From assembly GCA_963848295.1 (NCBI GenBank), contig CAWKDB010000010.1, forward strand, positions 1,568,001 to 1,632,000: 64,000 nt of DNA, given 5' to 3'. A model generated the notes under the pieces. That model did not search any database and was not told the origin of the DNA. It worked only from the letters and a program-made list of their open reading frames with translations. The position numbers were made by a program, and so were the translations under genes. Below are positions 23,278 through 62,421 of the stretch, piece by piece (the first letter of the stretch is position 1; every line of letters starts with the position of its first letter). Source of the DNA: an uncultured delta proteobacterium (GTDB taxonomy: Bacteria > Myxococcota_A > Polyangia > Haliangiales > Haliangiaceae).

Positions 23278-23559
23278 CTAGAAGCAGCAGGAGTCGCGGT
23301 AGCCGCAGGCCGGGCACTTGTAGTGCGCGTGCTCGGGCTGCATCTGCGTGTTGCAGCTCGGGCAGATCGTCGACAAGTCGGCCGAACGCCCGACGCGTAG
23401 CTCCGCCGAAGGCGGTGCGGAGGTCATCGACAGGTCGCAGCTCGGCCGGCGGGGAGGCTCGGCGACGACCTCGGGTGGCCGGGTGACCGCGTTCGGCGCG
23501 ATCGTGGCGACCGCCGCAAACCGGGACGGGGGCAAGGTACCGCGTGGGAATCGCTCCAT
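23278..23559 (-). CDS. Small zinc-ribbon protein (start uncertain)
   Basis: C-terminal CPSC..EHAHYKCPACGYRDSCCF; TAGGGC -10-like box 6 nt before ATG 23559. Confidence 0.65.
   Translation of the reverse strand: MERFPRGTLPPSRFAAVATIAPNAVTRPPEVVAEPPRRPSCDLSMTSAPPSAELRVGRSADLSTICPSCNTQMQPEHAHYKCPACGYRDSCCF
23370..23431 (-). repeat. 57-bp structured intragenic repeat, copy D (divergent)
   Basis: GTCGATGACCTCCGCACCGCCTTCGGCGGAGCTACGCGTCGGGCGTTCGGCCGACTT followed by GTCGA; period exactly 57. Confidence 0.65.
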
Positions 23560-23587
23560 GGCCGAGCCCTAGCACAGCGGTCTGACG

Positions 23588-26500
23588 ATGGCGGATACTC
23601 GAGGCGTGAGCATCGAGCGGGACGACACCATCCAGCCGACGACCAAGCTCGGGGTTGGCGAAGTGCCGACCGCTGACTTGCGTCCGGCACGGATGCGCAT
23701 CGCCACGATCGAGATCCCCGGCTACACCGTCACCGACCTGCTCGGCGAGGGCGGGATGGGCACGGTCTACGCCGCGGAACAGGACAACCCGCACCGGCGG
23801 GTCGCGATCAAGGTGCTCGAAGGCCGGTCGCAGAGCGCATTCATTCGGTTTCAGAACGAAGCCGAGATCATGGCGCGGCTCGATCATCCCGGCATCGCGC
23901 GCGTGCTCGAAGCGGGCGAAGCCGATGGCCGGCCGTTCCTCGTGATGGAGCACGTCGATGGCACGACGCTCGATCGCTACGTCAAGGAGCTCGGGTTGCG
24001 CGCGCGGCTCGAGCTGTTCGTCGCGTTATGCGAGGCGGTCCAACACGCGCACATCAAGGGCGTGATCCATCGCGATCTCAAGCCGGCGAACGTGATGGTG
24101 CGCAGCGACGGTCGCGTCGTCGTGCTCGACTTCGGCGTCGCGCGGCTCGCGGTCGACGATGGCTCGATGACGCCGACCGCGACGCGCGCGGGCGAGCTGA
24201 TCGGCACGCCGATCTACATGAGCCCCGAGCAAGCGCGGCTGCGCCCCGACGAGGTCGACGCGCGCACCGATGTCTACACGCTCGGCGTCATGCTCTACGA
24301 GCTGTGCAGCAACGAGCTGCCGTACGAAACGCGCGACGCGCCGCTGCCGATCCTGACGTGCATGATCTGCGAGGATCCGGCGACGCCGCTCGCGAAGCGC
24401 GATCCGGCGCTGCGCGGCGATCTCGACGCGATCACCGGCAAGGCGCTCGCGAAGGAACCGGGCGAGCGCTACCAATCGATCGCGGCGCTCGGCGACGACG
24501 TGCGCCGTCACCTCGACAAGTTGCCGGTCTCGGTGCGCTCGCCGGGAGCGATCGAGCGCACGGCGCGGTTCGTGCGCCGCCGGCCGTATCTCGCAAGCGC
24601 GATCGGGGTCGCGGTCGCCGCGGCTGCCGCGTTCGCGATCGTCGTGACGATCCTGTGGCGCGAAGCCGCGGTCGCGCGCATCGTCGCCGAAGGTGCGACC
24701 GCGCAGAGCGAGGTCCGGCGCGCCGCACTCGAGACCCGGACGAATCAGCTCACGCTCCGCACCGCCCGCGCCGCGCTCGCCCGCGATCCGACCGAAGCGC
24801 TCGCGTATCTCGCGACGTTGACCTCGCGCGGCGTCGACGCCGGCACCGCGTGGGCGATCGCCGACGAAGCGCTCGCTCGCGGCGTCGCGAAGGACGTGCT
24901 GCGCGGCCACTCCGACGAAGTCCACCGCATGGCCGAGCTGCCGGGCGGCTTCGTCAGCGCCGGCTACGACGGCAAGGTCATCGTGTGGGATCCGGCGCCG
25001 CGCACCGTGTTCACCGCGAAGAAGGGCCGCGCCCACGTCGCGGTGCCTTCACCCGACGGCTCCGAGATCGCGGTCGGCGGCGACTTCGGCGGGCTCGACG
25101 TCGTCAGCCGCGACGGCAAGCACCTGGCTTCGCTCCCCGGCTACGCCGGCGACGTCCAGCACGTCGCTTGGTCCGCCGACGGCGCGTGGCTCGCCGCCGG
25201 CGACGACCACGGCCGGCTCGCGGTATGGCCCAAGGGTCGCGCACCGTGCGTCGAGCTCATTCCGGGTGGCTCGACGATCGGCACGGTCGCGTTCGCGCCG
25301 ACCGGCGAGCTCGCATCCGGCGATCACGCGGGCGTCGTCCGCTGGTATGACCTCGCGACGCACGCGAGTGCATCGGCGGCGACCGGCACCGATATCGCGA
25401 CGGTGTGGACCGATGGCAAGCGTGTGATCTCGGCCGACGCGGGTGGCACGGTGCGCACGTTCCGCGTCGATCGAACCGCACCGCCATCCGGCGGCGCTGC
25501 CGGTCCCGGGCAAGCCGGCACCGTCGAAGGCACTCCACCGGCGCTCGTCGCCGATCACGTCAAGGCGACCGGCGTGAACGTCAAGCGCGCGGTGTTCGGC
25601 CCGGCCGGCGCCTGGCTCGTGCTCGGCGGCGTCGGCGGCACGGTGACGCGGGTCGTGCTCGACGCGGGGCAGGCCGGCGCCGTCGACGGCGATACGCTCG
25701 AACCGATCGGCCTGCATCACTCGCAGGTTCGCAGCATCGCGATCTCGGAAGATGGCCGGTGGATCGCGCACGGCGGCGACGACGGCACGCTCGCGCTCTA
25801 CGATCGAATCAGCCGGCGCACGCGCGAGCTCGCGGGGCACACCGGCCGGATCCGCCACCTGCTATTCGTCGACGGCGGCAAGCAACTGCTGTCGTCGGAT
25901 AGCGACGGGGTCGTGCGCCGCTGGGACCTGACCGAGATGCCGCCGACCGAGCTCTCGGCGGGCGGCGAGGCGATCGATCGGCTCGCGATCTCGCCCGACG
26001 GCGCGACCGTCGCGACGGTCGATGCGGCGTACGGCGTCTCGACCTGGAATACCGCGACCGGCGCGCACGTCGCGCTCGGCACCGCCGACAGCCGCGTCAC
26101 CGCACTCGCGTTCGCCGGCGATCGGGTCGTGACCGGCACGACCGAAGGCATCGTCACGCTGTGGGGGGACCCGCCGCACAAGGAGTCCGTTCACGCGATC
26201 GTCAAGGCGATCGCGACGAGCAGCGATCGGATCGCGGTCGCGACCTCGGCGGGCCCGATCGCGATGTTCTCGGTCGCGGGCGGTGCGCTGCCCTCGCTCG
26301 CGGGCAACCCAGCCGGCACCGAGGCGATCGCGTTCGCGCCGAGCGGCGACCTGCTGGCCTCGGGCGGACAAGATCGTTCGGTCCGCGTGTGGCGGCGCAC
26401 GACCGACGCGTGGACTCAGGTCGCCGCGCTCGACGGTCCGAAGGGCGACACCACGTTCGTCGCGTTCTCGCCGGGCGGCGACTTGCTCGCGAGCGCGGGC

Positions 26501-26974
26501 AACGACGGCGTGGTCTACGCGTGGCGCGTCACGAACGGCGCCGTAGATCCCGGTTCGCGAATGATCGTCGCTCGTCACACCGGCGCGGTCACCGCGCTCG
26601 CGGTCACCGCCGGCTGGATCGCCTCGGCGGGCCGCGACGTCGTCATCACGCGCGCGAAGGTGTCGGCCGGCTCGGTCGGCGCTTCCGAAACCGCGACGAT
26701 CCCCGCCGCCGCAACTCGGCTCGTGCTCGAAGACGATGGCGACTTGCGCGCGGTGACCCGCGCCGGCGGCGTGATCCGGTGGTCGCTCGGCTCGCCCGCC
26801 GTCGTCGAGAGCGAGCACGGCGCGCGCGACGCGGTGCGGCTCGCCGATCACGGTCGTTGGCTCGAGGCGTTCGACGACGGCGCGCTCGTCGCCGGCTCGC
26901 TGCACGCGCGCTCGCTCGCCGAGCTCCGAGCCACGCTCGCGCGCGCCACGACGTACACGCTCACGGCGCGCTAG
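23588..26974 (+). CDS. Hanks-type Ser/Thr protein kinase with TM segment and WD40 propellers
   Basis: LGEGGMG, VAIK, HRDLKPAN, DFG, YMSPEQ; many GH..WD-like repeats. Confidence 0.95.
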   Translation: MADTRGVSIERDDTIQPTTKLGVGEVPTADLRPARMRIATIEIPGYTVTDLLGEGGMGTVYAAEQDNPHRRVAIKVLEGRSQSAFIRFQNEAEIMARLDHPGIARVLEAGEADGRPFLVMEHVDGTTLDRYVKELGLRARLELFVALCEAVQHAHIKGVIHRDLKPANVMVRSDGRVVVLDFGVARLAVDDGSMTPTATRAGELIGTPIYMSPEQARLRPDEVDARTDVYTLGVMLYELCSNELPYETRDAPLPILTCMICEDPATPLAKRDPALRGDLDAITGKALAKEPGERYQSIAALGDDVRRHLDKLPVSVRSPGAIERTARFVRRRPYLASAIGVAVAAAAAFAIVVTILWREAAVARIVAEGATAQSEVRRAALETRTNQLTLRTARAALARDPTEALAYLATLTSRGVDAGTAWAIADEALARGVAKDVLRGHSDEVHRMAELPGGFVSAGYDGKVIVWDPAPRTVFTAKKGRAHVAVPSPDGSEIAVGGDFGGLDVVSRDGKHLASLPGYAGDVQHVAWSADGAWLAAGDDHGRLAVWPKGRAPCVELIPGGSTIGTVAFAPTGELASGDHAGVVRWYDLATHASASAATGTDIATVWTDGKRVISADAGGTVRTFRVDRTAPPSGGAAGPGQAGTVEGTPPALVADHVKATGVNVKRAVFGPAGAWLVLGGVGGTVTRVVLDAGQAGAVDGDTLEPIGLHHSQVRSIAISEDGRWIAHGGDDGTLALYDRISRRTRELAGHTGRIRHLLFVDGGKQLLSSDSDGVVRRWDLTEMPPTELSAGGEAIDRLAISPDGATVATVDAAYGVSTWNTATGAHVALGTADSRVTALAFAGDRVVTGTTEGIVTLWGDPPHKESVHAIVKAIATSSDRIAVATSAGPIAMFSVAGGALPSLAGNPAGTEAIAFAPSGDLLASGGQDRSVRVWRRTTDAWTQVAALDGPKGDTTFVAFSPGGDLLASAGNDGVVYAWRVTNGAVDPGSRMIVARHTGAVTALAVTAGWIASAGRDVVITRAKVSAGSVGASETATIPAAATRLVLEDDGDLRAVTRAGGVIRWSLGSPAVVESEHGARDAVRLADHGRWLEAFDDGALVAGSLHARSLAELRATLARATTYTLTAR
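25466..25527 (+). repeat. 57-bp structured intragenic repeat, copy A
   Basis: GTCGATCGAACCGCACCGCCATCCGGCGGCGCTGCCGGTCCCGGGCAAGCCGGCACC followed by GTCGA; encodes VDRTAPPSGGAAGPGQAGT within the WD40 region. Confidence 0.8.
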
Positions 26975-28049
26975 CCCCCGACTTGTTCTTGACCGCGAAC
27001 AGCAGGTTGTCGAATCCGGCAGCCTTGGCGGTGAGCACGATGCGGTTGATCACGATGGCGTCGGTGAGCTCGTCGGCCTGAAGGATCAGGACGCCCTGCG
27101 ACTTCCTACCGGGTGGCAGCGCCGCCGTGAGCTCGGCGATCGCGCCCGAGCCCTTGCGCAGTGCCGCGGTGGTCGCGAGCGCGTGATGCTCGAACTGCAG
27201 CTCGGTCTTGGTCACGATCACGACCGGTGCTTGGCGCAGACCGGCGTCGGTCGTCGGCAGCGATGGGGTCGGGGCCGGAGCGCGCGCCGTCATCGGCTGG
27301 TCCTTCGGCGGAGCGCAGTGACTCCGCGCGCCTTGCGGATCGGTCGGCAGCGGTCCGTAGGTGAGCGACCCGGGGTCGTCGAGCCCGGAGTCCATGCCGT
27401 GCTTGATCGCGATGTCCATCGCGTGGATCGTGTCTTGATACACGACGCCCGGCGCTGACGCCACGTCGGCCTCGGCTCCGCACGTGGCCGACTCGAAGGT
27501 CGCGATCTCGGCGTCGAGCCAAGTCGTGTCGATCGCGCCCGCTCGCCGTGGCGCATAGCAATGCTGGTCCGCCGCGGTCGCGATCCACACGCCGCCGGTG
27601 TCGATGTAGATCTGGAAGTCGCGGACACAGGTTGCCACCGGCCGCGTGCTCGGCTGGGGGTTGATCGAATCGATCGCGGTCTGCTTCATCACCGCGATAA
27701 TCTTCCCGCACTCGTCGGCGTGCGCGAGGATGTAGCTCGGCAGCATGCAGCGCTGCATCTCGGGCGGCATGCCGCGGCACTGCTTCGCGGCATCCGCCGT
27801 GGGGGCGTGAAGGTTCGGCGCCATCGTCGGGATCGCCGCGATCAGCTTCGCGAACCGGTCGCACAGCTCCCCGCTCGGCGCGACGCAGCCTTCGATCGTC
27901 GTCGCGACCTTGACCGGATCGCCGGGATAGCGCGCCGTGATCGCGACCATCGCGTTCGCCGGCTTGCCGAGCACGAGCTCGCAGTCGCTCGGCTGCGCGC
28001 GCGAGCCGCAGCCAACCACGAGCACCGCGATGACGAGCGAGCGACACAT
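26961..28049 (-). CDS. Cys-rich lipoprotein with ExbD/TolR-like periplasmic domain(s)
   Basis: Lipobox VVGC; C-terminal LILQADELTDAIVINRIVLTAKAAGFDNLLFAV. Confidence 0.65.
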   Translation of the reverse strand: MCRSLVIAVLVVGCGSRAQPSDCELVLGKPANAMVAITARYPGDPVKVATTIEGCVAPSGELCDRFAKLIAAIPTMAPNLHAPTADAAKQCRGMPPEMQRCMLPSYILAHADECGKIIAVMKQTAIDSINPQPSTRPVATCVRDFQIYIDTGGVWIATAADQHCYAPRRAGAIDTTWLDAEIATFESATCGAEADVASAPGVVYQDTIHAMDIAIKHGMDSGLDDPGSLTYGPLPTDPQGARSHCAPPKDQPMTARAPAPTPSLPTTDAGLRQAPVVIVTKTELQFEHHALATTAALRKGSGAIAELTAALPPGRKSQGVLILQADELTDAIVINRIVLTAKAAGFDNLLFAVKNKSGASAP

Positions 28050-28094
28050 ACGCCGGTGATAACACGCCTCGCCCCGCGCGCCGGGTAGCTCGGA

Positions 28095-28856
28095 TCACCG
28101 GTCGCGAGCCGGGACGGGCTCGACGAGGTGCGCATGGATCTTGACGTGCATCGTGCCGGCCTTGCGGCCGTCGTCGATGAGCTCGCCCGCTTGATCGAGG
28201 TCGCGCCCGGTATTCGAGAGCCGCAGGGTGCCCTTTGCATGGATCGAACGGGCAACGGGCAGGTCGGACGTGAGCTCGACATCGAACAAGATCGCTTGCT
28301 CATCGATCGCGCGCACGACGAGCTCGACGTCGTCGGCGTTGAGCTGCAGGCCGAGCCGCTCGCCTCGCGTGGGTCGGTAGCGCTCGCCGACCGTGAAGCG
28401 GTGCGAGTAAAACGAGCGGCGCCCGGCCTCGCCTTGCAGCTCGGATCGAGCTTCCTGCATGTCGTGGTCCTGTTCACCGGCGGGTACCGGCGCGCCGTTC
28501 TTCGAAACCACGATCCCCGAAGCAGTGATCGTCGCGTCGATCGTATCGAGGTCGGGTGGCTGGACGACCCCGTCCTTGACCCTGCGATCCACGCTCGCTG
28601 TCGTCCGGTAACGAGTCACCTGGTCGCCGGCGACCGCGAGCACCTCGCCGGCGAGCTCGCTGTGCCCCGTGATCACGTGCTCGACGCCATCGCGTTCGAC
28701 GATTTCGGTGTCGAGATCGAACGTCCAGTCGACGCGGTCGCCGACGCGCGGCGGAACCCAATGAAGCGGGCTCGGCGCCGAGGATCCCGCGCGTTCGCAT
28801 GCCCCGACGCAGACCGGCAGGGCGAACAGCGACGCGAACGCGACGCGGCGATCCAC
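28095..28856 (-). CDS. Hypothetical lipoprotein
   Basis: GTG start VDRRVAFASLFALPVCVGAC lipobox; beta-rich body. Confidence 0.6.
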   Translation of the reverse strand: MDRRVAFASLFALPVCVGACERAGSSAPSPLHWVPPRVGDRVDWTFDLDTEIVERDGVEHVITGHSELAGEVLAVAGDQVTRYRTTASVDRRVKDGVVQPPDLDTIDATITASGIVVSKNGAPVPAGEQDHDMQEARSELQGEAGRRSFYSHRFTVGERYRPTRGERLGLQLNADDVELVVRAIDEQAILFDVELTSDLPVARSIHAKGTLRLSNTGRDLDQAGELIDDGRKAGTMHVKIHAHLVEPVPARDR

Positions 28857-28879
28857 GCCGGTGGTAATACCACGCCGCG

Positions 28880-29482
28880 ATGTGGCGAACCGGCAGCGCC
28901 TGGACCGACCGCGATGCACTCGCACGACAGTGGCGCGGCGCCCAGCCGTTTCCGCACCTGGTGTTCGATGACGTGTTGACCGAGCCAGCGCTCGCCGAGC
29001 TGTTCGCGATCCTCGACGAAGAATCGGTAGATCCGTACGAAGGCGACATCTTGTCGTTCGAGGCATCGCCGCCCGAGCCCCGCACCGCCGAGCTCCGCGC
29101 CGTGCGCGAGGCCTTCGCGGCCGCCTACGCCGCACCGCTCGCGGCGATCACCCACAAAGTGCTCGCGCGCGCCGACATGCGCGCGTTCGCGTATCGCATC
29201 GGCCACTACCTCCTGCCGCACACCGATCACCGCGACGGGCTGCACCGCGCGCTCGCGTACGCGTACTACCTGCCGTCGCCCGAGCCGCCGACCGGTGGCG
29301 AGCTCGAGCTGTTTCGCTGCTCGATCGCCGATGGCGAGCTCACGGAGACGACGTCGGCGCTGCTGATCGAACCGCGCGGCAATCGCCTGGTCGTGTTCGA
29401 GGTCAACGACGTGTCGTTGCACCAGGTCCGCGAGGTCACCGCCGGGCTGCGGATGTCGCTCGCCGGATGGTTCTATCCGTGA
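28880..29482 (+). CDS. 2OG-Fe(II) oxygenase, OGFOD1/Tpa1-like prolyl hydroxylase catalytic domain
   Basis: PFPH N-terminal motif, YLLPHTD (HxD), GGELELF, NRLVVFEV..SLHQVREV, RMSLAGWF. Confidence 0.85.
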   Translation: MWRTGSAWTDRDALARQWRGAQPFPHLVFDDVLTEPALAELFAILDEESVDPYEGDILSFEASPPEPRTAELRAVREAFAAAYAAPLAAITHKVLARADMRAFAYRIGHYLLPHTDHRDGLHRALAYAYYLPSPEPPTGGELELFRCSIADGELTETTSALLIEPRGNRLVVFEVNDVSLHQVREVTAGLRMSLAGWFYP

Positions 29483-29997
29483 CGCCGGCCGAGCAGCTCG
29501 CGAACGAAGGCGTCGCTCTCGTCGCCGACGCCGTCTCGGTCGCGCTCGCCGCCGCGGTTCGCGCTCGCCTCGCCTATCGCCGGTTCGCGTTGCTCGATCG
29601 CGGTAGCTACGAATTCGCCGAGCGCGTCGTCGAGCCCGAGCTGTTCGCGACGCTCGCCGCGATCGCCTCGCAAGCGACCGGGCGTACGCTCGCCGCGAGC
29701 GACGCGCGCGCCCTGCGTTTGCGCGCGGGCGACTATGTCCTCGCGCATCACGATCGGTTCTACGACGACCGGCCGATCGAGGCCGTGCTCGATCTGTCGC
29801 CGGCCGCCGTGCCACAGGCCGAGCTGCACTATCGCAGGCGCGGCCAGGTGTTCTTCCGGTTCCCGAGCGCGCCGCGGGCGCTCGCGCTCGTCGATCGCAC
29901 ACCGGTCGTGACCTGCAACCACGTCTACGTCAGCCGATCGGTCCCGACCGCGGACGTCATCCGACTCGTCGTCACGCTGCGGGCTACGACGTCGTAG
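29479..29997 (+). CDS. Second DSBH protein resembling the OGFOD1/Tpa1/Ofd1 C-terminal domain
   Basis: GTGA overlap with the upstream gene; RLRAGDYVLAHHD, RALALVDR..YVSR. Confidence 0.65.
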   Translation: MTPAEQLANEGVALVADAVSVALAAAVRARLAYRRFALLDRGSYEFAERVVEPELFATLAAIASQATGRTLAASDARALRLRAGDYVLAHHDRFYDDRPIEAVLDLSPAAVPQAELHYRRRGQVFFRFPSAPRALALVDRTPVVTCNHVYVSRSVPTADVIRLVVTLRATTS

Positions 29998-31198
29998 GCG
30001 CGTCGGGCTTCGCCGCCGCCGAGATCGGCAGCATGATCGTGACCGTCGTCCCGATCCCGACTTCGCTCTCGATGTGCAATCGCCCGCCGGCGGTACCGAC
30101 GAGACGCTGACACTGCGCGATCCCCAAGCCGGTGCCCTCGGTGCGGGTCGTGAAGAACGGCGTGCCGACCTTCGACAGCACCTCGGGCTTCATCCCGACG
30201 CCATCGTCCTTGATCCGGAACTCGAGCATGTTGTCGTCGTTGGCGTGTACCGCGATCGAGACGTGACCGTTGGTCTTGCCGCGCGCGGCGACCGCCTGCG
30301 CACCATTCGACAGGACGTTGATCAGGACCTGCGTCAGCTCGGTCGCGGGCATCGTGACGCGCGGCAGCTCGGTCGGCCCGATGTAATCCACCGACGCGCC
30401 TGCGCGAATCGAGATCTGCTGACACACCGCCATCGCGTGCCGCAAGATCGGTAGCGGATCGGTCATCGGCGTCGACTTCGGATCGCGCGGCCGGCTGAAC
30501 TCGCGCAGGTTCGAGATCATGTGGTTGAGGTGCTCGGCCGACGCCTTGAGGTCGGCCATGAGCGGATCGATGTCGCCGAGCGCGGTGATCAGCGCGTCGC
30601 GCTCCGCCGATTTCGGCTCGCCCGCGAGCAGCGCGCGATGGATCATCGGCGCGTTCTGCGTGAGCTCGTCGAGCAGCTCGAGGTTGACGAGCAGTGACAC
30701 GACCGGCTGCTTGAGGTCGTGGACGAGCATGCCGGAGATCGTGCCGAGCGTGACCAGGCGCTCGGTGTCGAGCAGCCGGCGTTGCAACGCCTCCGAATCG
30801 CGGCTGAACGTCCACGCGCCGATCGCCCAGCGCAGGACCTGGATCGACCTCGGTCCGCTCCCACGGCTTGACGATGTAGCGCGCGACCAGACCCTCGTTG
30901 ATCGCCCGCAGGATCGGCTCGACATCGGCGTACGCGGTGATCACCATCCGGATCGTCCGCGGGTACTTCTCTTTGACGATCGCGGAGCAGCTCCTCGCCA
31001 GACATCGTCGGCATCCTCATGTCGCTGACGATCACGGCGACGTCGCCCTCTTCGAGCGCGCGGAACGCCTCTTCAGGCGTCTCGCAGGTCAAGACCGTAA
31101 ACATGCTGCCGATCGACAGCTCGAACACCGTGCGGTTCGGCTTCTTCGTCGTCGACGTAAATGACGAGCGGGCTCGGGGGCGGATCGGCGGCGGGCAT
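29984..31198 (-). CDS. REC-HisKA-HATPase hybrid kinase, three +1 frameshifts (about 31145, 30981, 30845)
   Basis: Reassembled: VIYVDDE..VSDMRMP..MVITAY..KPW; LVHDLKQP; NVLSNGA; DDGVG; PFFTT; GTGLG. Confidence 0.8.
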
Positions 31199-31343
31199 GG
31201 ACGAGCCCCCCCAGCATACCGCGTCGGTCAGGCCGGGAGGAGCCCCCGGCCGCTAGCCGTCCACTGTGCGTGGTAACCGGACTCCAACACCTCCGGACCG
31301 AGGTCATGGTCGGACGAGGCGAGTTGGGCCATCATCGGCCGCG

Positions 31344-32048
31344 ATGACCGATGACGCCTGGCAACCACCCGCGCGTGGCGCACTCGACGACACCGCGTGG
31401 CCGGAGAAGCTCGTCGCGAGAGCGATCGAGCCCGGTTCCGATGACGACCGCCTGCATGGCTACGCCGTCGTGGGAGACCTCGCGAAGCACTACGAGCTGT
31501 CGGAGGTGCTCTACCTCGCGATCGTAGGCGAGCTGCCGAACGCGGCGCAGGCGAACCGGTTCCGAGTCGCGCTGATCAGCCTCGCCGCGATAGGGGTGAA
31601 CGAGGCACCGACCCATGTTGCGCTGCTCAGTCGAATCTGCGCCGGTGCGATCTCGTCCGCGCTCGGCGCCGGGCTTGTTGTCGCTGCCGATCAAGCGCGC
31701 TTCAAGCTCGAGGCCAACTGGCCGCTGTTCGCATGGTTGGCAAACCCGGTCGGGCCCCCGCCTGATGAGGTATGCAGCCGCGATCCCGACGACGCGCGCT
31801 GGGTTGTTACCTTGCGCCGCGCCGCCCCCGACAGCACGCTGGTTCATGATTCGCTATCGCGCGATGCCGCGCGCATCGCGCTGCTCTACGACGCCGGGCT
31901 GCGCGAGCCGGCGCAGATCGAGGCCGCGTTCGTAGCCTCGCGAGTCTGCGGCATCGCCGCCGAGGCCCTCCGCGCTGGTCCGAAGGACCTCGGTTCGTAT
32001 CCGGTCAAGCTACCACCGTTCCACTACGTCGAAGACGAGGTGGCGTAA
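31344..32048 (+). CDS. Divergent citrate-synthase/citryl-CoA-lyase-fold protein A
   Basis: RLHGYAVVGDLAKHYELSEVLYLAIVGELP matches the CS-fold N-terminus; C-terminal SRVCGIAAEA. Confidence 0.65.
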   Translation: MTDDAWQPPARGALDDTAWPEKLVARAIEPGSDDDRLHGYAVVGDLAKHYELSEVLYLAIVGELPNAAQANRFRVALISLAAIGVNEAPTHVALLSRICAGAISSALGAGLVVAADQARFKLEANWPLFAWLANPVGPPPDEVCSRDPDDARWVVTLRRAAPDSTLVHDSLSRDAARIALLYDAGLREPAQIEAAFVASRVCGIAAEALRAGPKDLGSYPVKLPPFHYVEDEVA

Positions 32049-32833: not shown

Positions 32834-32873
32834 CGGGACACGCGCGCGATGCGATACGATCGAAGGACATGAC

Positions 32874-33389: not shown

Positions 33390-33397
33390 CTTGCAGC

Positions 33398-49675: not shown

Positions 49676-49676
49676 G

Positions 49677-50862: not shown

Positions 50863-50877
50863 GGCGCTCGACGAACG

Positions 50878-51309: not shown

Positions 51310-51338
51310 GGACGCGGTGATAACGCGACCCGTCTCGC

Positions 51339-52061: not shown

Positions 52062-52231
52062 GGCGGGGAGACCCTAGCATTAGTACGTGTTCGAGTCCGA
52101 GGGCGAAGAGCGCGAGCTGCTCGCGGCGCTACGAGCGGCTCCGCCCCAGCCCGCGTGATCCGCGAGCTCGGATTCCTCGCGTTGCCGAATCCTACAGCGC
52201 CGCCGGTACGACCCTTGCTCGACGTAGGTTG

Positions 52232-53557: not shown

Positions 53558-55929
53558 CCTCCGATCGGCTTGCCTGGCGTTTGCGAACCGCGGCGTTCGC
53601 CTGTCTGGCGCTCGCGGCGTGCATCACGGACGGACTCGTGCCGTGCGGCGACGAGCTCTGCCCGATCGGCTCGGTGTGCCTGGAGGGCCTATGCACGACG
53701 AGCGATCAGGCGACCGCGTGTGTTGGCGAGCCCGAAGGGGCGACGTGCTCGACGCCCACGACCACCGGGTACTGCGTCTCCGGAGGTTGTCGCGCGTCGG
53801 TGTGCGGCGACGGCAAGCTCGAGTACGGCGAGGTATGCGACGACGGCAACCAGACCTCCGGCGACGGTTGCTCGGCGCGGTGCGACTCCAACGAGACGTG
53901 CGGAAACAACGTCGTCGACTATGCGGTCGGCGAGCAATGCGACGACGGCAGCTACGGGCTGTCCGGAGATGGCTGCTCGTCGACTTGCAAGCTCGAGCTC
54001 GCGGTGTGGCGCGAGCAGTCCCCGCTCGCGTCGCCGTACGCGCGTGCGAGTCAGGGGATGGCGTACGACAGCGTGCGCGATCGCGTCGTCGTGTTCGGCG
54101 GCGTGCGCGGCGTGACCGGCCAGAACGATACGTGGGAGTGGGACGGGCTCAACTGGATCTTGCGCACGCCGCCGACCTCGCCCAGCCCGCGCGCATCGCC
54201 GGCGACGGCGTACGACTCGGTGCATCATCGCACCGTCATCTTCGGTGGCGAGTTCGGCCCGACGCTGTACAACGACACCTGGCTGTGGGACGGAACGACG
54301 TGGACGCAGGCCGCGACCTCGACCGCGCCATCGCCGCGCACCGACACCGCGGTCGCGTTCGACAAAGCGCGCGGCAGGCTCGTGCTGTTCGGCGGCCGAG
54401 ACAGCAGCGGCATCGTCGGCGACCTCTGGGAGTGGGATGGCGCGGCCTGGCGACAGATCGCGTTCACCGGCGGGCCCCCGGCGCGTCATCTCCACGTGCT
54501 CGCGTACGACGAGGTCCGCGCACGAGTCGTGCTCGTCGGCGGAACGGACGGCACGACCAACTTCACCGACACCTGGGAATGGGATGGCACGACGTGGACG
54601 CAACGCACGCCGGCCACGACCATGCCTGCGGTTCGCATCGCCGCCAGCGCGACCTATGACTCGGATCGCCACGTCGTGGTCGTGTACAGCGGAACGTCGG
54701 GGTCGACGATGCCGCCCGACACCGACACGTGGGAGTGGAGCGGCACCGACTGGGCTCGTCGCACCGCGACCGCCCCGAAACCGCCTGCCGTGTTACTCGG
54801 CGGCGCGGCGTTCGATGCCGTCGCACATGCCACGATCATCTTCGGCGGAAGCACCGCGATCGCCGATAACGCCGAGACGTGGGCGTTGAACGCCAGCGGG
54901 TGGCAAGAGCTCGATCACGCGTCGCCGTTGCCGCGAATCAACGCCGGATTCGTCGACGAGCCGACGCGCGGGTTCGTGCTGATGTTCGGCGGTCTGGACG
55001 GGCTGACTGCGCTGAACGACACCTGGGAATGGGATGGCACGAACTGGCTCCAGCGGGTGCCGGCGACATCGCCCTCGCCGCGCAGGCACGTCTCGCTCGC
55101 GTACGATGCGTCGCGCGATCGCGTCGTGATGTTCGGTGGCCTACAAAACTCGACTGCGCTCGGCGACACCTGGCAATGGGACGGCAGCGTGTGGACGCAG
55201 CTGACCGTGGCCGCGTCACCGTCGCCGCGTGCCGGGCATCGGCTCGTCTACGACGCAGCGCACGAGCGCACGATCCTCTTCGGCGGCACCGACGCCACGA
55301 ACACCGTGCTCGCCGACACGTGGATGTTCGATGGCACGACGTGGACACAGCTGACGCCGGCGCACAGCCCACCGCCGACCACGGAGTTCTCGTTCACGTA
55401 CGATCCCGATCGGCAGGTCGCCGTGCTGTGGAAGGATCCGACGACCGGCATCTGGCTGTGGGATGGAACCGACTGGACCGAGCACGACAACTCGAATCTG
55501 CCCTCGGACGCGGTCCTCGCGTATCACGCGAAGCGCCACAGCATGATCGCGTTCGGTGGCGACACCCCGGGCGCGACGCTCGTCGGCGAGACCTGGGAAT
55601 CGTTCGACGACACGACGTGGACGCTCCAGACCCCGGCGGCGTCGCCACCCGAACGCGTCGATCACGGGTTGGCGTACGACGCCGCACGCGGTCAGCTCTT
55701 GCTGTACGGAGGATTCACGTCGCAGGAAACCGAGGTCGGGGATACGTGGACCTATGGCCTCGAGTCCGGCACGCCGCCGGACCAGTGTGAGGGCGTCGAC
55801 ACCGATGGCGATGGCCTTGTCGGCTGCGCCGATCCCGACTGCGCCGCGCGGTGCGCGTACTGCGGCGATGGGACGTGCGAGCTCGTCGAAGACTATCTGC
55901 TGTGTCCGATCGACTGTGCGCCGCCCTAG
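53554..55929 (+). CDS. Lipoprotein with myxobacterial Cys-rich (DUF4215-type) repeats and 12 Kelch-like repeats
   Basis: [16 protein letters not shown] twice; repeated AYD..R..FGG..DTWEWDG..W; ATGA overlap with the GH5 gene. Confidence 0.85.
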
Positions 55930-55984
55930 CGGCCGCGACGCCGACTCGACCCGGCCTCGATGTAGGATCTTGCGACTGGTTCTT

Positions 55985-56000
55985 TGGCATGCGGCCTGCT
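55985..56000 (+). promoter_or_regulatory. Sigma54 -24/-12 promoter
   Basis: TGGCATGCGGCCTGCT; 13 nt from the -12 C to ATG 56013. Confidence 0.55.
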
Positions 56001-56012
56001 TTACCAAACCCG

Positions 56013-57230
56013 ATGAGCCCGAGGTCGTTCATCCTGGCTGCCCTGCTCGGATGCGGGCACCCGGGCGCCGGTTCCCCCGACACCCCGGCGGCCGACACCC
56101 CGGCGGCCGACACGCGGAGCAGCGACGCCGGCCTCACGACGCTGGACTGCGTCGCGAACGATCCCGCGTGTCCGGAGCTCGCGATCATGGGCGACTCGCC
56201 GTCGGGCGAAGCGTTCACCGGCTTCGCCGATCCGACGATCCGGCGTGACGGGGCTCGACTGTGGCTCGCCTACTCGTCCGCTCACACCACGCCGGCCGAC
56301 GTGATCGACGTCCGCCTCGCGCACAGCGACGACGAGGGGGCGACCTGGCAGTTCGACACCGTGCTGTGGCCCACCGTGCAGGTCACGAATCCGATCACGA
56401 ACACCGCGAACTATACGTCGAGCGAGGTCGCGAACCTCGCGACCGACGGCGCCGGGACCTGGTACGGCATCCGCGCGACGTACCTGGTCGATCCGGCGAA
56501 GGCGCAGTACGCGCAACCCGGGACCAGCGGGATGACGATCACGACGGCTTCTTCGCCGTCGGGGCTCGCGACCGCGCCGTCGGCGCTGCTCGGCAGCACG
56601 TTGACCAACGCGAAGATGAACCCCGCCGTCGATCTCCACGCGCTGTCGCCCGCTCTCGCCCACTGCGATCTGTTCAACGAGCCCGCGCTGATCGTACGCG
56701 GTGGCACGCTCTATCTGCTCGCGCAGTGCCTGTCGTACAACGGCCTGACGTACGATCCGAGCAGCGACTTCTACGCCGTGTTCGCGACGCAGCCGAGCGG
56801 CGCACCGGCCACCTGGACCTGGCGCTACGCCGGCGCGTTCGGCACGCACGCAGACGCCGAGGCGCTCGACGGGCATACGTACTGGGTGCAGCTCGATATC
56901 GCGACCGCGCTCGACGGCACGCTGCTCGCGATCGTGACTCCCAGCGAGTTCGACACCGCGGATGTCGTCGACATCCACTTCGGCTGCCGCGCGATCGAGC
57001 TCGCCGCGCTCGATCCTCCGGTGCTCGCCCGCGATGCCACGGGTGCGCCGGTCCTGCGCGCGTCGGTCACCGCGTCGGATCTCGCGCAACCGGACGGCTA
57101 CGGCCCGGGAGCATGCAGCTACGATCCGAGCTCGACTACCGGCATCCTGCTCGTGCGTCGCACCGGCCTCGTGATCGGCGAGAGCATCGGTGTGTTCACG
57201 CTGCACCGCACGGGTGTCCTCGCGCCGTGA
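56013..57230 (+). CDS. Lipoprotein, probable beta-propeller glycosidase/sialidase-like
   Basis: Lipobox LLGC; FADPTI, Asp-box SDDEGATW, NEPAL; (DTPAA)2 repeat near the N-terminus. Confidence 0.6.
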   Translation: MSPRSFILAALLGCGHPGAGSPDTPAADTPAADTRSSDAGLTTLDCVANDPACPELAIMGDSPSGEAFTGFADPTIRRDGARLWLAYSSAHTTPADVIDVRLAHSDDEGATWQFDTVLWPTVQVTNPITNTANYTSSEVANLATDGAGTWYGIRATYLVDPAKAQYAQPGTSGMTITTASSPSGLATAPSALLGSTLTNAKMNPAVDLHALSPALAHCDLFNEPALIVRGGTLYLLAQCLSYNGLTYDPSSDFYAVFATQPSGAPATWTWRYAGAFGTHADAEALDGHTYWVQLDIATALDGTLLAIVTPSEFDTADVVDIHFGCRAIELAALDPPVLARDATGAPVLRASVTASDLAQPDGYGPGACSYDPSSTTGILLVRRTGLVIGESIGVFTLHRTGVLAP

Positions 57231-57305
57231 GCGCGTGTCTCGATTTCCACCACAGCACTGAGGTTCGAGCCGGGCGATGTCGCAGCGGTCGAGTAAGCTG
57301 GCCGC

Positions 57306-60300
57306 GTGTCCCTCGTCCAGGCTCTGACCACCGCACAGCTGCGCGCGCGCGCCGGCCGCGGGTTCGAGCGCGGCGAGCGCTATTGGCGGCAAGGCCGAGT
57401 CAGCTCGTATGTCTCGCGCCCGGATCTCGTCACCGGGATCGTTCATGGCAGCGAGGCCTACCACGTGCGGTTGCTCGCGCGCGGCAAGCAGCTCGAGGCG
57501 GACTGCACGTGCCCGGTCGGCGTGCGCGGTGAGATGTGCAAGCACGCGGTCGCGCTCGCGCTCCACCATCTCGCGGTTGGCGGAGCCGCGAATCGCGTCG
57601 TGGCCGCCACCGCGAGCGCCTTCGCGACCCGCGCCGAGCTCGACGCCTGGGCGAGCGCGCATCGCGTCGAGTTCGAGCTCGACGTCACCGCCGAGGTGAT
57701 CGCGCCCGAGCTCGAGCCATTCCATGCGAGCGCGTGGCACCTGCGGCGCGAGCTCGCGCTCGTCCGGTTGCGCGACGTCGGATCGATCGAAGGTACGAGC
57801 CGGATGTTCGGCGACGCGGCGTTGTGCCAGCGCGCCGCGGAGGTCGTGGCGCATCGGCTCGAGCAGACCGCCGCCGACATCGCGACCGGCATCGCCGAGG
57901 AGCGCGAGCGTGCATCGACGTCGGGGGCTCGCCCCCCGACATCAGCATCGCCGGATGGCGCTGCGGTTAGATCGACCGGTGATGCGCTGCGGACGGCGCT
58001 CGTCGAGTTGCGCCGCCGCCTGCGCGCGAAGGCCGTGCCGCGATCGCGAGCCGCGCGCGCGACCGGTGCGTGGAGCTTCGACCGCGAAGGGCTCGCGATC
58101 GAATGGCGCGAGCCGATCAAGCTGCGCGGTCCGAGCTACACGATCGTGCCGGTCGTCGCGCGGCTCCGGCTCGAGCCGACCCCGGCCACGGCATGCGCGT
58201 GCCGGCTGCCGGCATGTACGCACGCGATCGCGCTGATCGACGCGACGCTCGATCGCCTCGAGGCGGACGATCCCGCGGCGCGCGAGGCCGCGCTCGAGCT
58301 CGGCCGTCCGCCGTGGCAGCGCGCGCTCGCCGCGCTTGCCGCCGACGAGGCGACCACGAAGCCGCTGGCTCGCGTCGAAGTATGGTGGGAGATCGATCAA
58401 GAGCTCGGCAACCTCGCGGTCACACCCGTCGTCAAGCGCGAGCTCAAGAAGGGTGGGATGTCGGCGGGCACTCGGATCAGCGCGGTGCGCCTGCTGCGCG
58501 ACCACGGCACCACGCTGTCCGATCGCGACCGCGAGATCGCGGCCCACATCGACAGTTGGCGGGCCGGACCCGCGACGAGCTATCCGGTCGGTGCCTTCGC
58601 GGCGTTGATCGGCCACCCGCGCGTGATGTTCGCCGGCGATCCGATCGCGGTGCGCCGGTGCCCGCTCGGCTTCACCGCCGTCGATCTAACCGCATCGCCA
58701 TCCGGCGATGCTGCCGTCCGGGGGCAAGCCCCGGCCGGCGTGGCCGGCGGCGACATCCGGCTCGAGCCCTCGGTCGATGGCGCACGATTCTCGCCGCGCC
58801 TGCTCGCGCCGCTGCTCGAGACGTTTCCGCCGAACGAGCCGTTGATCGTGCTCGAGCCCGAGCACGGGCGGTGCACGATGATCGACGTCGGGGAGCACGC
58901 GCGCCGCGTGTGGGCGGTCCTGGCGCGCCACGGCGATACGTTCCCGCCCGAGGCACACGCGCAGTTGTTCGACCGCCTCGCGAAGCTCGAGCACAAGCTG
59001 CCGGTCGGCGTGCCGACGTCGTTGCTCGGCGACGAGATCTTCGAGCCGACGACCGTCGTGCTCCGGTTGAGACTGCAACCCGATACCTCGCTCGAGCTCG
59101 AGCCGTTCGTCCGCGCTGCCGACGGCGCGCCGCTCTATCCTGCCGGCGTCGGCCCGCGCGACGTCATGATCGCACGCGACGGCAAGCGCAGCTACGTCCG
59201 CCGCGAGCTCGGGATCGAACGGGCGAAGGTCGACGCCGCGCTCGCCGCGTTGCCGCTCGCGACCGCTGAAGCGGGCCCGCCGAACTGCTACCGGATCGAG
59301 GAGCCGGACGCGGCGCTCACCGTGGTCGCCGCGGTGCAGACGCTCCCGGCTGGCGTCGTCGCGGAGTGGGTCGACGCGCGCGCCCGGATCGTGGCATCCG
59401 CGGGCTTGCCGCAGTTGCGCGTCGCGATCGAGGCGAAGCGCGATTGGTTCGGGATGACCGGCGGCGTCACGGTCGAAGCCGGCCGGATCGAGCTCGCGGT
59501 GTTGCTCGATGCAGCCCGCCGGCAGCAGCGGTTCGTCCGGCTCGACGAGCACCGCTGGGTCGAGCTCGCGGCGGCGTTGCGCACGCGGCTCGGCGAGCTC
59601 GCGGACCGCACGTTCGAGGCGACCGGTGGGCAGCTCGAGGTTTCGGTCGCGGCGGTGCCGGCGGTGCGCGCGCTCGCCGACGAAGGCGCGCAGGTCGACT
59701 CGGCCGCCACGTGGCAGCAGCTCGCGACCAAGCTGGCCGCGGCGACGAAGCTGCGCCCTCGCCCGCCGAAGGCGCTGAACGCGACGCTGCGGCCGTATCA
59801 GATCGAAGGTCACGCGTGGCTGTCGCGGCTCGCCGCATGGGGCGCCGGCGCGTGCCTCGCCGATGACATGGGCCTGGGCAAGACCGTGCAGGCGATCGCG
59901 CTGCTCGTCGACCGCGCGGCCGCAGGCCCTGCGCTCGTGCTCGCACCGACCTCGGTCAGCTTGAACTGGCTCGACGAGCTGCGCCGGTTCGCGCCGACGC
60001 TGAACCCGATCGTCTACGGCGAGGCGAGCGACCGGATCGCGACGCTCGCGACGCTCGGCAAGCACGACGTGTTGATCGCGAGCTACGGCCTGATGACCCG
60101 CGACATCGAGCCGCTCGCTCGCATCAAGTTCGCGACGCTGGTCGCCGACGAGGCCCAGGCGCTGAAGAACCCGCGGACCGAGCGCTCCCGGGCGGCGCGC
60201 GCGATCGATGCCGAGTTCCGCGTCGCGCTGTCCGGCACGCCGCTCGAGAATCATCTCGGCGAGCTGTGGTCGCTGTTCTCGATCGCGTTTCCCGGCTTGC

Positions 60301-61172
60301 TCGGGAGCTGGGAGCAGTTTCGCTCGCGGTTCGCCGTGCCGATCGAGCGCAACAACAACCCCGAGGCGCGCGCCGCGCTCGCGCACTTGATCCGCCCGTT
60401 CCTGCTCCGCCGCACGAAGGCCGAGGTCGCGCCCGACCTGCCGCCGCGCACCGAGATCGGCGTGCCGATCGCGCTGTCGACCGAGGAGCGAGAGCTGTAC
60501 GAAGATGCTCGGCTCGCCGCGGTCGCCCACCTCGACAAGCTCGCGAAGCGAGGTGACCGCGACGAACGCCGCCGGTTCCAAGTGCTCGCGGCGTTGACTC
60601 GCCTGCGGCTGCTCGCGTCGCATCCGAAGCTCTACGACGCGACGTCGGCGGTGAGCTCGTCGAAGATGCAGCGCTTGCTCGAGCTCGTCGAGGAGCTGCG
60701 CGCCGAAGGCCATCGCACGCTCGTGTTCAGCCAGTTCACGTCACACCTCGCGCTCGTGCGCGAAGAGCTCGAACGCGCAGGCGTCTCGGTGCTGTACCTC
60801 GATGGCGCGACCCCCACGGCGACGCGCCGCACGTTGATCGAGCGGTTCCAGGCGGGCGAGGCGACCGCGTTCCTGATCTCGCTCAAGGCCGGCGGCACCG
60901 GCATCAACTTGACCGGCGCGGACAACGTGATCCATCTCGATCCTTGGTGGAATCCCGCGGTCGAGGATCAAGCGACCGATCGCGCGCATCGCATCGGCCA
61001 GGACAAGCCGGTCACGGTCTATCGGCTGATCGCCCGTGGCACGGTCGAGGAGAAGATCCTCGCGATGCACGCGACGAAGCGCGCCCTCGTCGCCGGCGTG
61101 CTCGCAGGCACCGATGCCGCCGCACGGCTCACGACCGGCGACCTCGTCGACCTGATCGCGGCGCGAGCGTAG
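57306..61172 (+). CDS. SWIM zinc-finger SNF2-family helicase/ATPase
   Basis: CTCP..CKH and a second CAC..CTH; LADDMGLGKT, DEAQ, SGTPLEN, LVFSQF, DPWWNPAVEDQATDRAHRIGQ. Confidence 0.95.
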   Translation: MSLVQALTTAQLRARAGRGFERGERYWRQGRVSSYVSRPDLVTGIVHGSEAYHVRLLARGKQLEADCTCPVGVRGEMCKHAVALALHHLAVGGAANRVVAATASAFATRAELDAWASAHRVEFELDVTAEVIAPELEPFHASAWHLRRELALVRLRDVGSIEGTSRMFGDAALCQRAAEVVAHRLEQTAADIATGIAEERERASTSGARPPTSASPDGAAVRSTGDALRTALVELRRRLRAKAVPRSRAARATGAWSFDREGLAIEWREPIKLRGPSYTIVPVVARLRLEPTPATACACRLPACTHAIALIDATLDRLEADDPAAREAALELGRPPWQRALAALAADEATTKPLARVEVWWEIDQELGNLAVTPVVKRELKKGGMSAGTRISAVRLLRDHGTTLSDRDREIAAHIDSWRAGPATSYPVGAFAALIGHPRVMFAGDPIAVRRCPLGFTAVDLTASPSGDAAVRGQAPAGVAGGDIRLEPSVDGARFSPRLLAPLLETFPPNEPLIVLEPEHGRCTMIDVGEHARRVWAVLARHGDTFPPEAHAQLFDRLAKLEHKLPVGVPTSLLGDEIFEPTTVVLRLRLQPDTSLELEPFVRAADGAPLYPAGVGPRDVMIARDGKRSYVRRELGIERAKVDAALAALPLATAEAGPPNCYRIEEPDAALTVVAAVQTLPAGVVAEWVDARARIVASAGLPQLRVAIEAKRDWFGMTGGVTVEAGRIELAVLLDAARRQQRFVRLDEHRWVELAAALRTRLGELADRTFEATGGQLEVSVAAVPAVRALADEGAQVDSAATWQQLATKLAAATKLRPRPPKALNATLRPYQIEGHAWLSRLAAWGAGACLADDMGLGKTVQAIALLVDRAAAGPALVLAPTSVSLNWLDELRRFAPTLNPIVYGEASDRIATLATLGKHDVLIASYGLMTRDIEPLARIKFATLVADEAQALKNPRTERSRAARAIDAEFRVALSGTPLENHLGELWSLFSIAFPGLLGSWEQFRSRFAVPIERNNNPEARAALAHLIRPFLLRRTKAEVAPDLPPRTEIGVPIALSTEERELYEDARLAAVAHLDKLAKRGDRDERRRFQVLAALTRLRLLASHPKLYDATSAVSSSKMQRLLELVEELRAEGHRTLVFSQFTSHLALVREELERAGVSVLYLDGATPTATRRTLIERFQAGEATAFLISLKAGGTGINLTGADNVIHLDPWWNPAVEDQATDRAHRIGQDKPVTVYRLIARGTVEEKILAMHATKRALVAGVLAGTDAAARLTTGDLVDLIAARA
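57914..57976 (-). repeat. 57-bp structured intragenic repeat, copy C (antisense within the SNF2 gene)
   Basis: GTCGATCTAACCGCAGCGCCATCCGGCGATGCTGATGTCGGGGGGCGAGCCCCCGAC followed by GTCGAT. Confidence 0.85.
58680..58736 (+). repeat. 57-bp structured intragenic repeat, copy B
   Basis: GTCGATCTAACCGCATCGCCATCCGGCGATGCTGCCGTCCGGGGGCAAGCCCCGGCC; 33/34 identical to copy C over the first 34 nt. Confidence 0.85.
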
Positions 61173-61185
61173 TGCGCGCGCTCGG

Positions 61186-62421
61186 TCAATCCGCGTCAGC
61201 GCCAAGCGCTGCTCCCGAGACGACGCCCGCGTCCTCACTTGCGCTGAGCGACGTTCGGACTCCAGGGAGCGAAGCTCGGCCTGTGACCGATGCGGTTGGA
61301 TCGATGATCGCGAGCACGCGGGCGGCCGGCACGCGACGAGTGAACGGCACGACCGGCGCACCGGCGGGTAACTGCATGGCATCCGCGGCGCGGCTCGCGT
61401 CGATGCAGAGGATCACGCGCACGTTCGCCGCGGCGTAGAGCTCGAGCTTGCGAGCGAGATAATTCGGCGTCCAGAACCCGACGATCTCGATCGACCAGCG
61501 CGTGTCATCGCGCTCGAGCACGAGATCGGGAAACGCAAACGAGCTCGCGACCGCGATCGGCGGTGGCTCGCTCACCACGGTCCACTGCGGCGCGTGCTTC
61601 GCGAGATCGGCGGCGAGTCGCTGCTCGACCGCGCGCCGCACTCCGCCCCTTGCATCGTAGCCCGGCAGCATGATCGGCGGCGCGATCCGGACGATCGTGG
61701 GGCTCGGCGACGGCGGAAGGTCGCAGCGCGCGATCAGCTCGAACGACTCGCAAGCGGCGAGCGCGGGGACGAGCGAGCCGAGCGCGCGGCCATACACCGC
61801 GGTGCGATGAAACAGCGCCAGTGGTCCCGACACGACGACCTCGACCATGTCGCCGCTCGCATGCGCACTCGCGATCAGACCGCGCCTGATCGCGCCGCGG
61901 ACGAGCGACCGCGAGCCGTCCGGCACGCGCAAGCGGAGCTCGTGACAGCGCAGCAGACAGCGTTGGATGATCGCGAGGTTCGCAGCGGCCGCGACGGCGA
62001 GCTCCGAGGGCCGCCCGAGCGGCAGCGAGATCGTACGCTCGTCCCACAAGTCGGCCCACATCAGCTGCTCGAAGTCCGCGTCCGACACGACGAGCTGCTC
62101 GGCTGCCGCCCGGATCCGGGTCGCGCGCTCGCGTTCGTCGAGCGCGAGCCGGCCGAGCAGGCGACTACGCATCTCGGGGGAGACCAGATCGTGGTGCACG
62201 CGGCCTCCGAGCAGCCGGCGCAGCGCGTGGACGATCGCGGCACGGCGCGCCGGCGAGCCGACCACCGGGATCGCGGCGATCGACTCGATCCATTCGCGCC
62301 ACGGCCGGCCGACCGCGCCGACAAATGCGTCCACGAGCTCGGCGATCCACGGCACGTCGGTGTCGTCGAGCAACTCGAGCGTCGCATCGCCGCCGTGATG
62401 GCGAACCGGCAGCGACCTCAC
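61186..62421 (-). CDS. DUF790 family (Bax1-like) PD-(D/E)xK-type endonuclease
   Basis: WADL..E, NLAIIQ..L, SGPLALF..T..YG, FPDL..EIVGFWTPNYLARKL; GTGA overlap with the helicase. Confidence 0.85.
   Translation of the reverse strand: MRSLPVRHHGGDATLELLDDTDVPWIAELVDAFVGAVGRPWREWIESIAAIPVVGSPARRAAIVHALRRLLGGRVHHDLVSPEMRSRLLGRLALDERERATRIRAAAEQLVVSDADFEQLMWADLWDERTISLPLGRPSELAVAAAANLAIIQRCLLRCHELRLRVPDGSRSLVRGAIRRGLIASAHASGDMVEVVVSGPLALFHRTAVYGRALGSLVPALAACESFELIARCDLPPSPSPTIVRIAPPIMLPGYDARGGVRRAVEQRLAADLAKHAPQWTVVSEPPPIAVASSFAFPDLVLERDDTRWSIEIVGFWTPNYLARKLELYAAANVRVILCIDASRAADAMQLPAGAPVVPFTRRVPAARVLAIIDPTASVTGRASLPGVRTSLSASEDAGVVSGAALGADAD
61274..61305 (-). repeat. Degenerate 5' part of the structured repeat in the DUF790 C-terminal tail
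   Basis: ATCGATCCAACCGCATCG (16/18 to copy B) followed by hairpin GCATCGGT-CACAG-GCCGAGC. Confidence 0.4.

Follow-up and report, generated by a model that had tools for sequence, protein, structure and literature searches.

A 57-nt two-hairpin element family inserted in frame in unrelated genes of a Kofleriaceae genus

Introduction

Rickettsia palindromic elements (RPEs) are described as palindromic repeats that lie in frame in unrelated protein-coding genes and have no known mover (PMC10969869, PMC3733652). The account in PMC10969869 gives them a length of about 150 bp, 44 insertions in Rickettsia conorii and a conserved peptide. Intragenic repetitive extragenic palindromic sequences (REPs) of Opitutus terrae and R. 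conorii, as presented in PMC3733652, lie in some cases in frame in genes such as those for helicases and tRNA synthetases, and REPs of the CGTC type are likewise described there as having no linked transposase. Here we analyse a 64,000-nt stretch of DNA (the window) from an uncultured soil delta proteobacterium (assembly GCA_963848295.1, contig CAWKDB010000010.1, positions 1,568,001 to 1,632,000), in which a first-pass annotation, made from the letters alone, had marked four copies, A to D, of a 57-nt two-hairpin repeat. All four stand where they were marked, in three real and unrelated host genes, and A, B and C align without gaps. They belong to a family with 210 copies at 169 sites in the source genome (149 main-type and 20 D-type sites), which is very probably a mobile, non-autonomous element.

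Copy number and structure

The four copies in the window are as follows.

25466..25527, plus strand: copy A (main subfamily), a 57-nt unit with the junction repeated; lies within a WD40 turn of a kinase, frame kept; 81 bits
58680..58741, plus strand: copy B (main subfamily); lies within the part of an SNF2 gene that encodes the N-terminal region, frame kept; 83 bits
57915..57976, minus strand: copy C (main subfamily); runs antisense to the SNF2 gene, frame kept; 80 bits
23370..23433, minus strand: copy D, second subfamily; (CT)TGTC junction, in frame in a zinc-ribbon gene; E 2.6e-16 with the D-subfamily profile

The source genome (G000) is a 7.78-Mb assembly of about 68% G+C and 85% completeness, in which our own dicodon model calls about 6,700 genes; all genomes that bear the element are metagenome-assembled. 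A profile seeded with copies A to C and iterated over this genome gave 174 matches at E ≤ 0.01, whereas the reversed genome, serving as control, gave none even at E ≤ 0.1. Tandem arrays of two to six units occur at 16 of the 169 sites.

Each 57-nt unit opens with a junction motif and a short leader, after which come hairpin 1, a single base and hairpin 2. Hairpin 1 has 8 bp and a loop ending T-N-C, and is conserved in sequence. Hairpin 2 has 11 bp and a 5-nt loop, varies in sequence, and has the second junction motif as its 3' foot. When columns are ranked among 93 solo copies, the strongest covariation joins pairs in both stems and loop 2. In the alignment of 43 copies from which the main-type covariance model was built, 86.8% of cells across both hairpins are paired, with 79 double-sided changes; none of 500 shuffles reached this level of pairing, and slid controls gave 29–63%. 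The significance of the covariation is overstated by these figures, since the structure was derived from the same copies and the copies are mutually related. Covariation of both hairpins, first suggested from the window copies, extends to the family, and scans of the kind that the first-pass annotation had advised yield further copies genome-wide and in relatives.

On this model copies A to C score 79–83 bits and everything else in the window scores at most 19 bits; Rfam gives no match within the window. Copy D scores 18 bits, the level of background, because it is a member of a second subfamily, and it was found via variant copies in relatives. This D subfamily comprises 36 copies at 20 sites, with a different second loop and the (CT)TGTC junction. 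The absence from D of the TAA triplet that B and C carry in one forward frame, noted earlier together with the reading of D in that frame, is a trait of its subfamily. Other genomes of the same genus (L078-L081, L084, L085, L096-L099) carry a third variant, which ends differently and comes in forms of 57 and 59 nt.

Empty sites

The genes that carry the four copies are listed here.

23588..26974, plus strand: Ser/Thr kinase with WD40 repeats (Pfam); host of A
57306..61172, plus strand: SWIM / SNF2 helicase (Pfam, translation); host of B and C, which lie upstream of the SNF2 domain (aa 831-1109)
23278..23559, minus strand: 93-aa zinc-ribbon protein, conserved in the genus, with element-free orthologs of 73-84 aa; host of D

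Comparison with a close relative (G041), whose flanking DNA is about 90% identical to that of the source genome, finds the relative 60 nt shorter at A, exactly 57 nt shorter at B and 51 nt shorter at C; copy D is present in both. More distant SNF2 orthologs (57–63% identity) lack the element in the 14 usable rows at C and the 15 at B (4 of the 19 rows are wrong-strand open reading frames and were left out), and one of them bears an unrelated insertion at site B. All five distant kinase orthologs that cover site A are 21–24 aa shorter there, and the zinc-ribbon gene has a gap of exactly 19 residues at D in 15 of 15 aligned element-free orthologs. Orthologs that lack the element exist for all three host genes, the outcome that the first-pass annotation had looked for. 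Because a relative lacks A, B and C, and orthologs are 19 residues shorter at D, we conclude that the copies are insertions.

The same holds beyond the window. Among the 136 matches listed in G041 we took 93 full copies, 75 of which have an orthologous site in the source genome; 55 of these sites are empty or decayed and 20 are filled, and the difference is exactly 57 nt at 24 of the 75. At sites shared by the two genomes the number of units per array differs, and arrays have therefore changed after insertion. In three DNA sequencing runs, none of the listed joints skips B or C, 16 more joints lying beyond those listed, so that the runs speak neither way. One gene, which we take from its motifs to resemble thymidylate synthase, bears an insertion in each of two genomes, at sites that lie close together but do not coincide (L090 in G018, L271 in G041).

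Two further segments in the window had been proposed as remnants.

25651..25686, plus strand: decayed remnant of the hairpin-2 half, lying in frame within the kinase gene; model positions 36-58 match, background score
61274..61305, minus strand: possible truncated left end, uncertain, in a DUF790 gene; first 18 nt match, background score

The first is supported, as G041 is without 30 nt at the remnant (25659). The second is uncertain, with equal length in G041 and a score at background. Two other features of this region are recorded here in their own right. A Kelch-repeat protein at 53581-55929 (plus strand) has 147-nt internal repeats, which are ordinary protein repeats, and in G041 the zinc-ribbon gene is separated from the following gene by about 650 bases more than here, adjoining window position 23277 (L215).

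Target rule and junctions

Empty sites with a single clean 57-nt gap (35 in all) place the switch from left to right flank within junction positions 1–5, where the counts are G/A 27, T 31, C 24, G 30 and A 25. Within one mismatch of TCGA are 29 of the 35 targets (background 9.3%), and 12 match it exactly; TCGA is a common palindrome in this genome, at 1.3% of positions. For the D subfamily, 11 of 15 loci in G041 have an ortholog in the source genome and 7 of these are empty; 6 of the 7 read CTTGT (background 0.07%), which is the end motif of the D subfamily itself. Each subfamily inserts at sites resembling its own 3' end. The first base of the target also tracks the end base of the element, in two small tests: 4/7 against 3/28 in empty sites (p=0.018) and 13/27 against 14/66 in flanks in the source genome (p=0.013).

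All four window copies start with GTCGAT, and in A, C and D, not in B, a second GTCGA follows 57 nt later, which the first-pass annotation had likened to a target-site duplication. That comparison is not supported. The second GTCGA belongs to hairpin 2 as its foot; this right-hand motif covaries with its stem partner, and therefore is not a plain target duplication. An ordinary MITE (a miniature transposable element with inverted repeats), moved by a DDE transposase and leaving TCGA as a 4-bp target duplication, would account for a TCGA-like motif that stands on both sides of the element and once in the empty site. We find this explanation hardly credible, as there are no terminal inverted repeats inside the motif, the two subfamilies have different motifs, and, besides the covariation of the right motif with the stem, the left and right bases are not mutual copies: position 2 against position 59 gives 60 matches where 59.2 are expected, and the motifs are otherwise uncorrelated.

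Copies inside genes

Well inside called genes lie 98 of the 169 sites (58%), in 90 genes, compared with 76.5% of random positions; in-gene insertions are therefore depleted yet common. The other sites are intergenic (38) or at gene edges (33). At the 91 in-gene sites of the main type, the T of the junction is the second codon base in 72 cases, the first in 18 and the third in 1, against 72.5, 16.3 and 2.2 expected from the availability of TCGA. Both orientations are used (55 sense and 36 antisense sites), and five reading frames are in use, at 48, 24, 12, 6 and 1 sites. The frame is kept in all 90 near-full in-gene copies, and nine frame-shifting variants lie outside genes or at their edges, a comparison that is partly circular. 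In a survey of lengths in other genomes and metagenomes, from which 52 copies with no clear second stem were excluded, 137 of 152 measurable copies have a codon-multiple length, with peaks at 57 nt (107) and 54 nt (23). The periods of tandem units are 57 (29), 54 (7) and 58 nt (2). In-frame copies would add an Ala/Gly/Pro-rich loop of 19 residues to the proteins, as predicted from their translations. The earlier proposal of a non-autonomous, in-frame mobile element that supplies such loops is upheld by the empty sites, the copy number and the covariation.

Family hits were obtained for 22 of 40 host proteins scanned, taken from 63. The hosts include Era, ArgS, EF-G, RecG, a UvrD-type helicase, SbcD, parts of CysG, and CinA, and a gene for an Lhr-type helicase bears three inserts. 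Both argS and era are single-copy in the source assembly. In argS (C11:700334-702295, L398) five tandem units, about 95 extra residues, stand between two aligned blocks, just after the first, and the Era insert stands in place of four residues of Escherichia coli Era.

These locations bear on whether the hairpins are instead a functional RNA signal carried in mRNAs, as the first-pass annotation had offered as an alternative, or a segment excised from RNA so that proteins are left unchanged. The strong covariation across copies, and inserts in the single-copy genes argS and era, are what such a role could produce. Among the 15 copies common to the source genome and G041 there are also 5 compensatory changes, where about 0.8 are expected. 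Against this, the same copies carry 31 pair-breaking changes and diverge as fast as their surroundings (11.1% against 9.7% in flanks). Resident copies are mostly decaying, and the small compensatory excess is what conversion or hairpin repair could give; decay at the pace of the flanks speaks against a signal in mRNA. Genes carry the element in both orientations, most sites are without it in the close relative, and frame and codon-multiple length are preserved, neither of which excision would need. We consider an RNA role very improbable.

Range

A pattern scan of species genomes gave, among the matches listed, 80 titled rows, 69 of which are Kofleriaceae, Haliangiales, Myxococcales or unplaced Deltaproteobacteria; of the remainder, hairpin 2 is missing from nine, and two are genuine copies that stand in a bin with another label. 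The main-type model matches at least 24 of 53 genomes of the same genus, compared with single weak hits in 2 of 47 genomes from other genera of the family and in 3 of 140 genomes across the phylum. Genus and phylum counts from this model are lower bounds, and other subfamilies may escape detection by it. Two genomes flagged as unpublished, G010 and G067, contribute solely to tallies and to a single row of the SNF2 orthologs, and nothing claimed here rests on them. The element is nearly confined to one Kofleriaceae genus. Plasmids gave one weak partial match. In viral contigs the single match lacks hairpin 2 and was judged to be chance, and the D pattern has no match there.

Mechanism and the search for the mover

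The reading we favour, with a probability of about 0.55, is that of a selfish, non-coding, 57-nt two-hairpin DNA element that moves as single-stranded DNA by means of a HUH-type transposase acting in trans. It fits because the target resembles the element's own end, no true duplication is made, hairpins stand at the ends, and there are several subfamilies. In IS200/IS605 elements, as described in PMC6006769 and PMC8266576, the left end lies beside a conserved target and the cut is selected by guides that the element itself encodes, and HUH transposons generally leave no target duplication according to PMC10288648.

In such a mechanism the sequence-conserved hairpin 1 would be the binding site for the enzyme. 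Hairpin 2, conserved only in its pairing and ending at the junction, would set the cut and help to pick a target like the element's own end. The folded strand may be the reverse complement. Within genes only codon-multiple lengths would survive, so that such lengths would come to dominate the donor pool, and in-frame copies would then be translated as tolerated loops of 19 residues. Tandem arrays would have grown or shrunk after insertion, probably by slippage between the terminal direct repeats. A double-stranded circle of 57 bp is too stiff to form easily.

As to the strand, the lower DNA fold is that of the reverse strand in 73 of the 93 solo copies, and the mismatches of hairpin 2 are 49 A.C against 22 G.T, A.C becoming a wobble pair on the reverse strand. 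As to the enzyme, a genus-wide, RAYT-like family of Y1 transposases is the leading candidate, by elimination only. Y1 genes are found in all five element-rich genomes tested and in the source genome, where nine matches are weakly similar to RAYT and to the TnpA of IS200, under both cut-offs.

Several observations weigh against this mechanism or this enzyme. Hairpin 1 has no A.C/G.T asymmetry and the strand asymmetry is modest overall. The element flanks none of 54 Y1 loci (38 + 16), a fraction of the Y1 loci in the genus, and most Y1 genes of the source genome bear a different, 171-nt repeat. Y1 genes occur in 59 of 61 genomes of the genus, many of them element-free, and in a Y1 tree of 46 rows, with rich and poor labels assigned by the author, no clade unites the element-rich genomes. 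Orientation by local GC skew is even (81:81 sites), which gives no replication-fork bias. No left and right end were found split around a gene in the source genome, at its 85% completeness; no transposase is a shared neighbour across genomes, no Y1 gene stands in 121 metagenome loci, and the element has no GTAG or GTGG tag. The RAYT/IS200-like mover named in the first-pass annotation is thus matched by the presence of Y1 genes and not by hairpins beside them, and it stays an inference.

Some features of these genes are worth recording. In the source genome a multi-copy clade of RAYT-like Y1 genes, 80–86% identical (L021-L029, e.g. C10:3657361-3658119 and C10:1439431-1439988), is for the most part preceded by the separate 171-nt palindromic repeat, which has about a dozen intergenic copies. 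Genus-wide, the RAYT-like Y1 family has up to 37 matches per genome. At C10:653403-653750 stands a Y1-like gene in which both the HUH motif and the catalytic Tyr motif are gone; about 500 nt upstream of it is a stretch resembling a decayed hairpin 2. Two weak likenesses to the element's left end were judged to be chance: one lies upstream of a Y1 gene, and the other, with E 0.08 in the local search and 5.9 across the whole genome, at the 3' end of a different Y1 gene.

Y1 fits better than the other enzymes considered, namely IS91-type Y2, TnpB, IS110 and resolvase. IS91 targets CTTG. No IS91-type Y2 gene was found in six element-rich genomes (G075, G072, G055, G016, G009 and G011), none of 19 Y2 loci bears the element, and TnpB was found in none of five genomes. 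Two broken IS91-family Y2 genes stand head to head beside an integrase-like gene in the source genome (C10:52000-54600; L200, L201). Close pairs of copies that flank a gene number 17, against 6.7 expected, and none of them surrounds a transposase.

A different route would be homology-based insertion at the junction motif by another recombinase or by host repair, as suggested for SDR5 into HIP1, which is described as inserting precisely within HIP1 (PMC4390886). TCGA is a very common palindrome, frame use matches its availability, and neither a fork bias nor a link to HUH genes was found, all of which this route would accommodate. The D subfamily speaks against it, as its target CTTGT is rare and non-palindromic. 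As for candidate enzymes, IS110 was not found in the source genome (85% complete), and resolvase is missing from one of five element-rich genomes. We regard this route as unlikely, but as one to be kept in mind.

An RNA copy inserted by a reverse transcriptase that primes on short end homology is improbable. It could draw on three group II intron-type reverse transcriptases in the source genome (C11:619500, C11:721418 and C2:795818; L202-L204), two of which look truncated or frameshifted, and on the resemblance of the target to one end of the element. Yet no retron-like gene stands near those three genes and none of them adjoins the element, both ends are precise in most insertions, most copies lie within mRNAs with no evident release of a 57-nt RNA, and Rfam, as said, has no match in the window.

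Comparison with known systems and significance

Beyond the HUH-type mechanism that we favour, we tentatively consider a stronger version of it, which we hold to be possible but doubtful: a minimal, self-guided transposon adapted to proteins, in which the terminal stem would pick the target, a few changes of end bases would retarget the element (TCGA vs CTTGT), length would evolve in whole codons, and a HUH clade would need no REPtron. If it is true, the family would be a natural source of inserted loops and newborn tandem repeats in proteins, and no RPE-like element before it would have had a target rule readable from sequence. Both ends of the element are fixed by dozens of site pairs, one filled and one empty, and the family further offers two subfamilies with different targets and a short list of candidate enzymes. 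It also represents one route to protein loops and repeats, with about 90 of some 6,700 called genes bearing an insert in one genome, and with most compared sites differing between two genomes that are themselves only 10% diverged. For annotation, it accounts for the Ala/Gly/Pro-rich segments that recur across unrelated Kofleriaceae proteins. The literature searched, whose coverage leaves out most subscription journals, holds no description of Kofleriaceae repeats.

Among described systems, MITEs moved by DDE transposases are characterised in PMC3733652 by terminal inverted repeats of 15–30 bp and a target duplication, and the element has neither. IS91/ISCR rolling-circle elements would be expected to co-occur with Y2 and to have an oriIS end; Y2 was not found in the six element-rich genomes given above, and none of the 19 Y2 loci bears the element. 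Non-autonomous derivatives of IS200/IS605 are closer, sharing two hairpins, a short target like the terminal motif, no true duplication and a target tied to the element sequence. They differ in that the hairpins here are unlike each other, no parent element with a transposase was found in the source genome and no TnpB in five genomes, and in that IS200/IS605 insertion is biased to the lagging strand whereas the element is divided 81 vs 81. Cyanobacterial SDR5, from its description in PMC4390886, is likewise a mobile repeat of very small size, and the palindrome that it enters, HIP1, is over-represented; it differs in sequence and host, and the likeness is one of description only.

REPs and REPINs with GTAG or CGTC tags resemble the element as short stem-loops of high copy number, with several subfamilies per genome, tandem arrays and some in-frame insertions, as far as their published descriptions go, and the core of hairpin 2 equals the GI REP palindrome of Pseudomonas fluorescens SBW25 as given in PMC3116915. 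They differ in several respects. No GTAG or GTGG tag is present here, and CGTC is the 3' arm and foot inside stem 2; the two hairpins are unlike and form no inverted doublet; REPs and REPINs are mainly extragenic whereas the element is mostly intragenic (of its 169 sites, 38 are intergenic and 33 stand at the edges of genes); and they have a cognate REPtron, which was found at none of the 54 Y1 loci examined, a fraction of those in the genus.

RPEs, likened here by their descriptions, share in-frame insertion in unrelated genes, seen here at 98 of 169 sites in 90 genes. The element differs in its length, 57 nt rather than about 150 bp, and in its roughly 100 in-gene sites in one genome. RPEs are described with one conserved peptide, in contrast to mainly four frames here, set by target availability, and empty sites here define two targets. 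The element thus departs from the features that define RPEs and REPs (length, single peptide, tag, extragenic bias and REPtron), but works like Rickettsia palindromic elements and intragenic REPs. It is a real and apparently undescribed family, notable for its readable target rule and its codon-quantised length.

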